Of a stretch of DNA of 64,000 nt, positions 55,614 through 57,485 are shown piece by piece. This DNA is from Eledone cirrhosa. Lineage: Eukaryota. The stretch spans positions 228,842,001 to 228,906,000 of the forward strand of contig OZ024743.1 in assembly GCA_964016885.1 (NCBI GenBank). The letters run 5' to 3'. Numbering within the stretch: the stretch's first letter is position 1; each line of letters starts with the position of its first letter. Below the pieces are notes generated by a model. The model did not search any database. It was not told the DNA's origin and worked only from the letters and a program-made list of their open reading frames with translations. A program made the position numbers and the translations under genes.

Positions 55614-55963
55614 ATATAAGTATGTACACGTACATATATATATGTATACCGACGTACAGTAGTATGTATATATATATATACATTCATGAACACATCTGGC
55701 AGGAAGGTATACTTTGCTGACGATAGCTAACAAGCTTGAAACTAGTACAGCGTTCCTTTGTCAGTGTTGAACAAACGAGCAACGGTGGTTGCTAGACACT
55801 ACGGCTTAATACGGGATGTTTGTTTACAAACACACCGAGCATTATAATAAATGTTCGGTGAATCCATACGTGCATATATATATGTGTGCATGTATGTATA
55901 TATATATATACATACTACTGTACGTCGGTATACATATATGTATGTACGTGTACATACTTATAT
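55614..55963. mobile_element. Unclassified element with 82-bp terminal inverted repeats enclosing a hammerhead
   Basis: 55614-55695 is the reverse complement of 55882-55963 with 3 mismatches. Confidence 0.75.
55711..55753 (+). ncRNA. Minimal type-I hammerhead ribozyme
   Basis: ACTTTG-CTGACGA-tAGCT aaca AGCTt-GAAA-CTAG-TA-CAGCGT; GUA cleavage triplet. Confidence 0.72.
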
Positions 55964-56109
55964 TTAAGTAACAGCCGTACTAAGAGTGGGAAATGAAATA
56001 TCGTTTCATTTTTTCCGTTTATCGTTTTCGGTGCACCCGGCCGATTAACCCACTCGATATGCAAATTGGGCTACTAAACTACTACCGTAAACTCTTGGTA
56101 GATTTATCT

Positions 56110-57485
56110 ACATATATATATACATGTATATATATATATATATATATATATATATATATATATATATATATATATATATATACATGTATATATATATATA
56201 CATGTATATATATATATATATATATATATATATATATATATATATACATGTATATATATATATACATGTATATATATATATATATATATATATATATATA
56301 TATATATATATATATATATATATACATGTATATATATGTATATATATATATATATATATATATATATATATATATATATATATATATATATATGTATATA
56401 TATGTATATATGTAATATATATATATATATGTATATATATGTATATATGTAATATATATATATATATATATATATATGTATATATATATATGTATATATG
56501 TAATATATGTATATATATATATATATATATATATATATATATGTATATATATATATGTATATATATATATATATGTATATATATATATGTATATATATAT
56601 ATATATATATGTATATATATATATATATGTATATATATATATATGTATATATATATATATATATGTATATATATATATATGTATATATATATATATATAT
56701 ATATATGTATATATATATATATGTATATATATATATATATATATATATGTATATATATATATATATATGTATATATATATATATATATATATATATATAT
56801 ATGTATATATATATATATATATATATATATGTATATATATATATATATATATATGTATATATATATATATATATATATATGTATATATATATATATGTAT
56901 ATGTATATATATATATGTATATATATATATATGTATATATATATATATATATATATGTATATATATATATATATATATATATATATATATGTATATATAT
57001 ATATATATATATATATATATATATGTATATATATATATATATATATATATATATATATATATATGTATATATATATATATATATATATATATATATGTAT
57101 ATATATATATATATATATGTATATATATATATATATATATATGTACATATATATATATATATATATATATATGTATATATATATATATATATATGTACAT
57201 ATATATATATATATATATATATATATGTACATATATATATATATATATATGTACATATATATATATATATATATGTACATATATATATATATATATATAT
57301 ATGTACATATATATATATATATATATATATATATATGTACATATATATATATATATATATGTACATATATATATATATATATATGTACATATATATATAT
57401 ATATATATATGTACATATATATATATATATATATATATATATATATATATATATATATATATATATATATATATATATATATATA
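56110..57485. repeat. Interrupted (TA)n array
   Basis: Direct reading. Confidence 0.97.

Follow-up and report, generated by a model that had tools for sequence, protein, structure and literature searches.

How a hammerhead motif came to lie between mirror-image repeats inside a (TA)n array, and whether the motif and the repeats form one element, is the question raised by a locus in the Eledone cirrhosa window (the whole stretch of 64,000 nt that was analysed). The two arms (55614-55695 and 55882-55963) are each 82 nt long and reverse-complementary apart from 3 mismatches; 186 nt lie between them, and all motifs named in an earlier sequence-only reading are in place. The 23-nt core of the arm occurs twice in the window against 0.00 expected from shuffles. 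The retroelement-type hammerhead of that reading, at 55711-55753, likewise has a complete core and a GUA site when read from the sequence. No credible ORF was found at the locus. From the same features, the sequence-only reading had assembled a sealed element with MITE-like termini. The hammerhead motif and the inversion both exist, but they were wrongly merged into one unit: we consider it very probable that the locus is a truncated two-armed retrozyme insertion into (TA)n, with the reverse transcriptase (RT) and endonuclease of a Penelope-like element (PLE) likely acting in trans. The features are collected in Table 1.

Table 1. Features of the locus (window positions) and representatives of the two PLE families (locus and genome positions)
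Feature	Position	Strand	Remarks
(TA)n target array, left flank	55412..55613	.	period-2 array called at 55412-55648
Inverted 5'-truncated repeat-unit copy (unit positions 135-219)	55611..55695	-	left arm; outward end is family 3' site S1
Forward piece of ~424-bp retrozyme unit, subfamily A1	55693..56077	+	
Type I hammerhead motif, extended stem I	55696..55764	+	core 55711-55753; predicted cut after 55747
Long-range helix TACGGCT (55800-55806)/AGCCGTA (55973-55979)	55800..55979	+	U-A to A-U between subfamilies
Hairpin CACCGAGCATT/AATGTTCGGTG	55833..55860	+	C-G to G-C between subfamilies
Right arm (internal segment in every unit)	55882..55963	+	ends at family 3' site S1
61-nt stretch, S1 to S2 (56022)	55962..56022	+	equivalent of PLE 'tail'
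Helix GAGTGGG/CCCACTC with inner hairpin AAATGAAA/TTTCATTT	55984..56055	+	G-C to A-U between subfamilies
33-nt 3'-end piece of family B (intact Hydra-like Penelope element)	56080..56112	+	
(TA)n array, right flank	56112..57485	.	
Family B representatives	L058:3001-5626; L141 (G000:C4:213744500-213754400)		young, intact Hydra-like PLE
Family C	L171 (G000:C5:14303829-14307434)	minus	abundant PLE, 794-aa open frame, DKT motif

The genome is 3.0 Gb in size and microsatellite-rich; unfiltered BLAST was dominated by TA repeats, and copies of the repeat were traced by marker and filtered mapping. The interior of the locus has many genomic matches at 93-98% (40 of 304 candidates were scored), and several of these form head-to-tail arrays of about 430 bp in period. 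In the array units, the sequence of the right arm is an ordinary internal segment with the rest of the unit after it, and no inverted copy of the arm was found inside long tandem arrays. Exact 31-nt hammerhead cores occur in two versions, 2,732 and 10,046 times (12,778 genome-wide), with 0 matches for a reversed-pattern control. Most distinct units (91 of 111) measure 420-439 bp and represent subfamily A1, while most of the remaining units belong to subfamily A2, which is ~460 bp or longer and carries TA expansions. The unit is non-coding with a GC content of 37%, and it is present both as dispersed copies and in arrays of up to tens of units. Elsewhere in the genome, consecutive units carry the type I hammerhead; the window copy has a single motif, and its forward piece is about 98% identical to an array unit but stops short of the closing linker (~45 nt).

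Animal non-LTR retrozymes are described as non-coding tandem units of 150-450 bp with a GC content under 45% and one type I hammerhead per unit (PMC7229834). The dispersed copies of the Eledone family, read in the hammerhead sense, stop at one of two sites, S1 or S2, and run into (AT)n from both, which fits a non-LTR build. An ORF with RT and GIY-YIG endonuclease was found neither in the unit nor attached to it. Judged by these sequence features, the window repeat is a new family of animal non-LTR retrozyme, and the view that the locus fits no standard class gives way to a described class with a Penelope-like insertion structure. Like the non-LTR retrozymes of Cervera and de la Pena (2020, PMC7229834), the family ranges from monomers to long arrays and amounts to thousands of copies. 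Unlike those retrozymes, it has inverted arms and two fixed 3' ends, neither of which is described for retrozymes in the sections of that paper and of a later preprint (bioRxiv 10.64898/2026.07.22.740005) drawn on here; furthermore, no parent pLTR was found in this analysis.

The hammerhead itself can be read base by base. The core C3-U4-G5-A6-C7-G8-A9 lies at 55717-55723 and G12-A13-A14-A15.1 at 55738-55741; stem I (6 bp) is formed by 55711-55716/55748-55753, stem II (4 bp) by AGCT/AGCT at 55725-55736 with a U.U pair at its base, and stem III by the palindrome ACTAGT, with the GUA triplet before the predicted cut. This is the canonical metazoan type I layout, for which a 6-bp helix I, a 4-bp helix II and a 1-2-bp helix III with a palindromic loop are reported (PMC4209133). 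The U.U pair at the base of helix II and the weak palindromic helix III are shared with the axolotl retrozyme motifs, which are described as dimer-dependent (PMC7229834). Rfam gave no match at gathering score across the whole 64,000-nt window, and the 89 matches at E<=10 in 55300-56300 comprised no hammerhead family, only low-complexity miRNA-like noise. The active fold of the monomer is calculated at -3.2 kcal/mol compared to -17.1 kcal/mol for the minimum free energy (MFE) structure, and the 69-nt hammerhead domain is no more stable than its shuffles (z -1.0). Helix I of the window copy has one T-C mismatch (5/6 pairs), at a position where most family units have G-C. Standing alone and with this mismatch, the window hammerhead would likely need a partner copy for activity; as it is the only one in the copy, the copy could not release unit-length RNA. 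For the family, ribozyme activity is predicted from the motif. Two more type I hammerhead-like motifs occur on the plus strand at 1495-1545 and 1709-1760 of the window, 214 bp apart; their sequence (CTGTC-CTGATGA...GAAA...GACAG) apparently belongs to another, degenerate retrozyme family.

The sequence-only reading had further predicted a highly structured transcript, and this holds in part. The region 55600-56120 folds with a z of -14.3, but most of this is owed to the arms, and the inner 186 nt alone reach z -2.3; a circular A1 unit gives z -7.8 (40 shuffles), partly via its TA tracts. Several helices are, however, backed by compensatory changes in an alignment of 27 units from separate loci with 58 proposed pairs. 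These pairs are retained in 95.8% of cells, with hammerhead helices 1-4 paired in 95-100%, and changes on both sides of a pair occur in 17 cells, compared to 0/500 shuffles and 1-3 for slid partners. The double changes stem almost entirely from the split between A1 and A2, with one compensated pair each in hammerhead helix I, TACGGCT/AGCCGTA, the CCGAGCATT hairpin and GAGTGGG/CCCACTC. The covariation thus amounts to four substitutions in a single subfamily contrast and suggests these helices with moderate strength. TACGGCT/AGCCGTA surrounds a TA-rich hairpin and site S1, and S2 falls within GAGTGGG/CCCACTC. The two nested helices of the sequence-only reading fared less well: AACAAAC/GTTTGTT is paired in the MFE structure but absent from the centroid, while the AGCAAC/GTTGCT hairpin is kept, though less conserved (89%) and with zero double changes.

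S1 corresponds to window position 55961, with AT microhomology extending to 55963, and its distance to S2 is 61 nt in A1 and 62 nt in A2. The first 100 core matches listed fall into 45 clusters, and 40 of these, chosen by core match alone, made up a first sample (one long array and the last four clusters were omitted), which was scored by script and eye. Two arms are present at 31/40 loci: 27 have head-to-head arms that end at S1 and S2, one has S1 at both ends (L100), none has S2 at both ends and three cannot be scored (L074, L088, L097). The remainder comprises eight one-armed loci and one long array. At least 27 S1+S2 loci among the 28 scorable ones would be expected with p about 1e-7 if the ends were independent and 50:50; L092 and L108 are counted among the 27 via arms of 11-12 nt. 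A second sample was drawn from the other core variant, for which the 20 clusters listed first were used: five loci are S1+S2, one is possibly S2+S2 (L183, with a 5-nt arm), five are two-armed with a cut-off end and nine are one-armed. The raw motif tally (28 S1/S2 and 7 S1/S1) included artefacts that were removed on inspection, namely five 30-nt and one 84-nt self-pairs within the semi-palindromic arm, L083 being actually S1/S2, whereas re-scoring by hand showed L100 to be a true S1/S1. (TA)n directly flanks both sides in 24/28 loci by script, and no target-site duplication is readable in these flanks. The two-armed insertion of L079 is present twice at a distance of 2,586 bp (1493-2681 and 4079-5267) owing to a later tandem duplication, and was counted once. 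Stuttered ends also occur, with a doubled short S2 arm in L194 and similar stutters in L164.

The inverted arm ranges from 11 nt to over 4 kb across insertions, and the arms were therefore formed anew at each insertion; that of the window is an S1 arm of 85 nt. Either arm may be the longer one (S2 in L072, L081 and L086; S1 in L079, L082, L084 and L103). Arms span several hammerhead sites and have variable inner ends, and most junctions join differing unit positions, the palindromic junctions of L072 (q70/q70) and L109 (q310/q310) being exceptions. Arms of the same locus are closer to each other than to the median other locus in 21/24 cases, yet the own arm is the best match in only 10/24, and this comparison is confounded by insertion age. 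In L086 (1940-5630), a two-armed insertion, 11 unit pieces are identical except for one site, and the units of both arms share two variants missing from four other young loci, which makes this locus a candidate product of rolling-circle reverse transcription. The units of L072, in contrast, are heterogeneous, so that the evidence on a rolling circle versus a multimeric template is mixed. L1-style twin priming on one linear RNA was rejected, as the 5' ends of the arms do not lie at S1/S2.

A comparable architecture is known from endonuclease-bearing PLEs, where an inverted 5'-truncated copy forms inverted repeats around the unit, (TA)n serves as target (PMC8557442) and head-to-head repeats of the same build have been described (PMC3846280). 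A tail of 30-40 bp is often present at one end only (PMC8557442). In vitro, AT-rich DNA was cut and extended on both strands by a PLE protein, and for an Anolis PLE two internal RNA start sites that bound the tail were mapped directly; cleavage by the PLE hammerhead is protein-assisted and dispensable for insertion (PMC11167929). The retrozyme resembles these elements in its inverted 5'-truncated copy beside a forward copy, partial tandems, repeat-borne hammerhead, optional one-sided tail and (TA)n targets (PMC8557442, PMC3846280, PMC11167929). It differs in having no ORF, in helices I and II of full size compared to the minimal PLE hammerhead, and in a tail of 61-62 nt, which exceeds the published 30-40 nt and counts against the PLE reading, as do the exceptions to the pairing in L100 and L183. 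A link between retrozymes and PLEs has been argued before, on distribution and phylogeny, with retrozymes as non-autonomous PLE derivatives whose mechanism remains to be established (Li, Clavereau and Pollet, bioRxiv 10.64898/2026.07.22.740005); the word 'tail' has zero occurrences in the main text of that preprint. The closest non-autonomous counterparts in the sections of PMC8557442 drawn on here are Chlamys PLEs such as MRC1, which are likewise non-coding, multicopy, head-to-tail and moved by PLEs. These share 3' sequence with autonomous families and belong to a group without canonical hammerheads, whereas the Eledone retrozyme has a hammerhead and no sharing with the two PLE families of its genome described below. 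Titles of publications since 2020 yielded none on a one-arm-per-site rule in retrozymes, in a search that mostly left subscription journals outside its reach.

At its right end, the window copy extends beyond S2 to 56077 and is then followed by the 33-nt piece of family B. The bracket TACTAAGAGT/ACTCTTGGTA, which had been read as enclosing the next 140 bp, is therefore a chance pairing that joins two different repeat families, and the junction has a single occurrence in the genome, that of the window. Family B encodes an ORF of 813 aa with RT and a C-terminal endonuclease-like region, and its 55 scored matches have 98-100% identity without stops. The unit of 6,188 bp has a sharp 5' boundary, a microsatellite-rich 3' region of 3.5 kb and two end sites about 135 nt apart. 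Pfam returned no family for the protein, and no canonical hammerhead was found in the unit. Motifs identified by eye in the L058 protein (DKT, RWR, which is RWK-like, a CxCX5C linker, CxxC and CxH) would fit the Hydra clade of PLEs. RT, endonuclease-like C-terminus and (TA)n insertions are as reported for that clade, while the unit is longer than the reported size of under 3 kb (PMC8557442), the placement being by motifs. Family C comprises 150 scored matches and has a hammerhead-like motif upstream of its ORF. Compared with the retrozyme unit, families B (L058/L141) and C (L171) have only simple repeats in common, and an autonomous element sharing retrozyme sequence was not found among these two PLE families, which counts against the PLE reading. 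A B copy near the retrozyme arrays L033/L034 was discarded as an autonomous parent, as about 6 kb of other DNA lies between.

The 33-nt piece can be compared with other ends of family B. There are 51 exact end motifs, at least 17 of which start at the base found in the window, and 10/17 of these copies carry a short inverted B arm, the same two-arm build as in the retrozyme. Retrozyme sequence lies upstream only in the window copy among these 17. The piece thus represents the usual short arm of B, perhaps formed by run-off to the 5' end of the B RNA. However, B and C ends also land independently beside retrozyme copies in shared (TA)n (L072, L077, L093 and L107), and a second insertion with deletion is therefore as possible as a template switch. 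If the junction arose by template switch in one event, family B would be the mobilising enzyme. Two further B ends are of note. At L072:5945-6100 (G000:C1 near 9972450), the last ~14 nt of the B end are repeated four times with TA spacers, which resembles repeated abortive priming and might, as a guess, reflect telomerase-like reiteration. Around position 3000 of L055, (TA)n tracts surround a lone 33-nt B piece, and a flanking sequence of 14 nt is repeated on its two sides as a possible target-site duplication.

Other repeats of the window were recorded as well. Very long (TA)n arrays of 1.4 to over 4 kb occur at 50494-53473, 56112-57485 and 59731-64000 and carry interspersed TATATG/TATACA variants, with a polarity that switches along the array. 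Between two of them lies a 5'-truncated LINE (57486-59730, plus strand) with endonuclease-like and RT frames (RVT_1, E 3e-20), frameshifted and internally shortened; it was set aside as a mobiliser, as 1.4 kb of (TA)n intervenes and it is unattached to other retrozyme copies. A 192-bp SINE-like unit is present in three tandem copies at 24754-25324 and in at least 7 further dispersed occurrences.

The mirror-image left end of the locus is likely the scar of a PLE-type insertion, given that the S1+S2 pairing, the inverted 5'-truncated copy with a one-sided tail and the (TA)n targets match published PLEs, and that the intact PLE families B and C exist in the genome. In such an insertion, arrays would be transcribed and the RNA cut to unit length by the hammerheads, probably as dimers via the ACUAGU palindrome, with circles as possible products. 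A PLE protein would then nick both (TA)n strands and start two cDNAs, one from S1 and one from S2, and both cDNAs would stop early and join at microhomologies, leaving an inverted repeat. In the window, the left cDNA would correspond to the S1 arm and the right side to the foreign B end followed by retrozyme, either through a template switch in one event or through a later B insertion joined onto a resected retrozyme copy. With the same family and enzymes, the arm could also arise when a single cDNA primes itself or folds back (or from an antisense template), 61 nt then being trimmed from one end by the endonuclease. This route is unlikely, though far from negligible: self-priming (PMC3846280) and 'EN-mediated resolution' (PMC8557442) have been proposed for PLEs, the palindromic junctions of L072 and L109 would suit it, and the common source towards which same-locus arms tend, as do the shared variants of L086, fits a fold-back as well as one RNA or circle for both starts. 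It is contradicted by arms of which either the S1 or the S2 arm may be longer, by junctions that mostly join different unit positions, and by the direct mapping of Anolis PLE RT starts to both ends of the tail (PMC11167929).

Readings that dispense with a PLE-type insertion fare worse. Spread of a satellite at the DNA level, through recombination or repair within (TA)n tracts, with the hammerhead as a relic and the inversion as a local replication accident, is improbable, as accidents of this kind would not produce ends at two fixed sites, one per side, and the compensated pairs of the four helices argue for RNA structure being under selection; the long arrays, the fragile and self-complementary TA tracts, the heterogeneous units of L072 and the local amplification invoked for retrozyme arrays (bioRxiv 10.64898/2026.07.22.740005) speak for it. 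Still more improbable, and already largely refuted, is the discrete element of the sequence-only reading, in which MITE-like terminal inverted repeats would surround a hammerhead and the whole would move or replicate in the form of a viroid-like rod. MITEs are short and non-coding, with inverted repeats and TA-rich targets, and the arms here do exist and give the region a very stable fold. Unlike in MITEs, the inverted repeats are not fixed unit termini: the right arm falls inside each of the tandem units, arrays lack the inverted arm and arm lengths vary up to kilobases. Arm and core are found elsewhere without the sealed arrangement, as for a local inversion, which is the outcome that the sequence-only reading had named as its own refutation. 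One other locus, L009, does share the inversion junction of the window, in favour of the element, but its outer ends form another pair, and the right-hand bracket is a one-off junction. With respect to a viroid-like replicon, the scan of the window revealed one hammerhead motif family near the locus, on the plus strand only, so that ribozymes of both polarities were not seen; there are >12,000 cores in genomic DNA, and the core had 0 matches in viral contigs.

Being truncated, the window locus is itself a dead end, and both its retrozyme class and the inverted-copy-plus-tail build were known already; its value to specialists lies in the pairing rule and in a possible record of trans-mobilisation. 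On how animal retrozymes are inserted, this family offers an argument from insertion signatures in thousands of young copies, with exact candidate RT start sites (S1 and S2) and intact candidate PLE proteins now named. The PLE-type insertion can be taken one step further, to a view that we regard as possible but doubtful: the near-strict one-arm-per-site rule would reflect a dimeric PLE protein that primes each target strand at a different site of a single retrozyme RNA, which may be circular in view of the identical units in both arms of L086, and the window copy would record the RT of a Hydra-like PLE switching from its own RNA to that of the retrozyme. If true, the window copy would directly document that a PLE can mobilise in trans a parasite with which it has no sequence in common.
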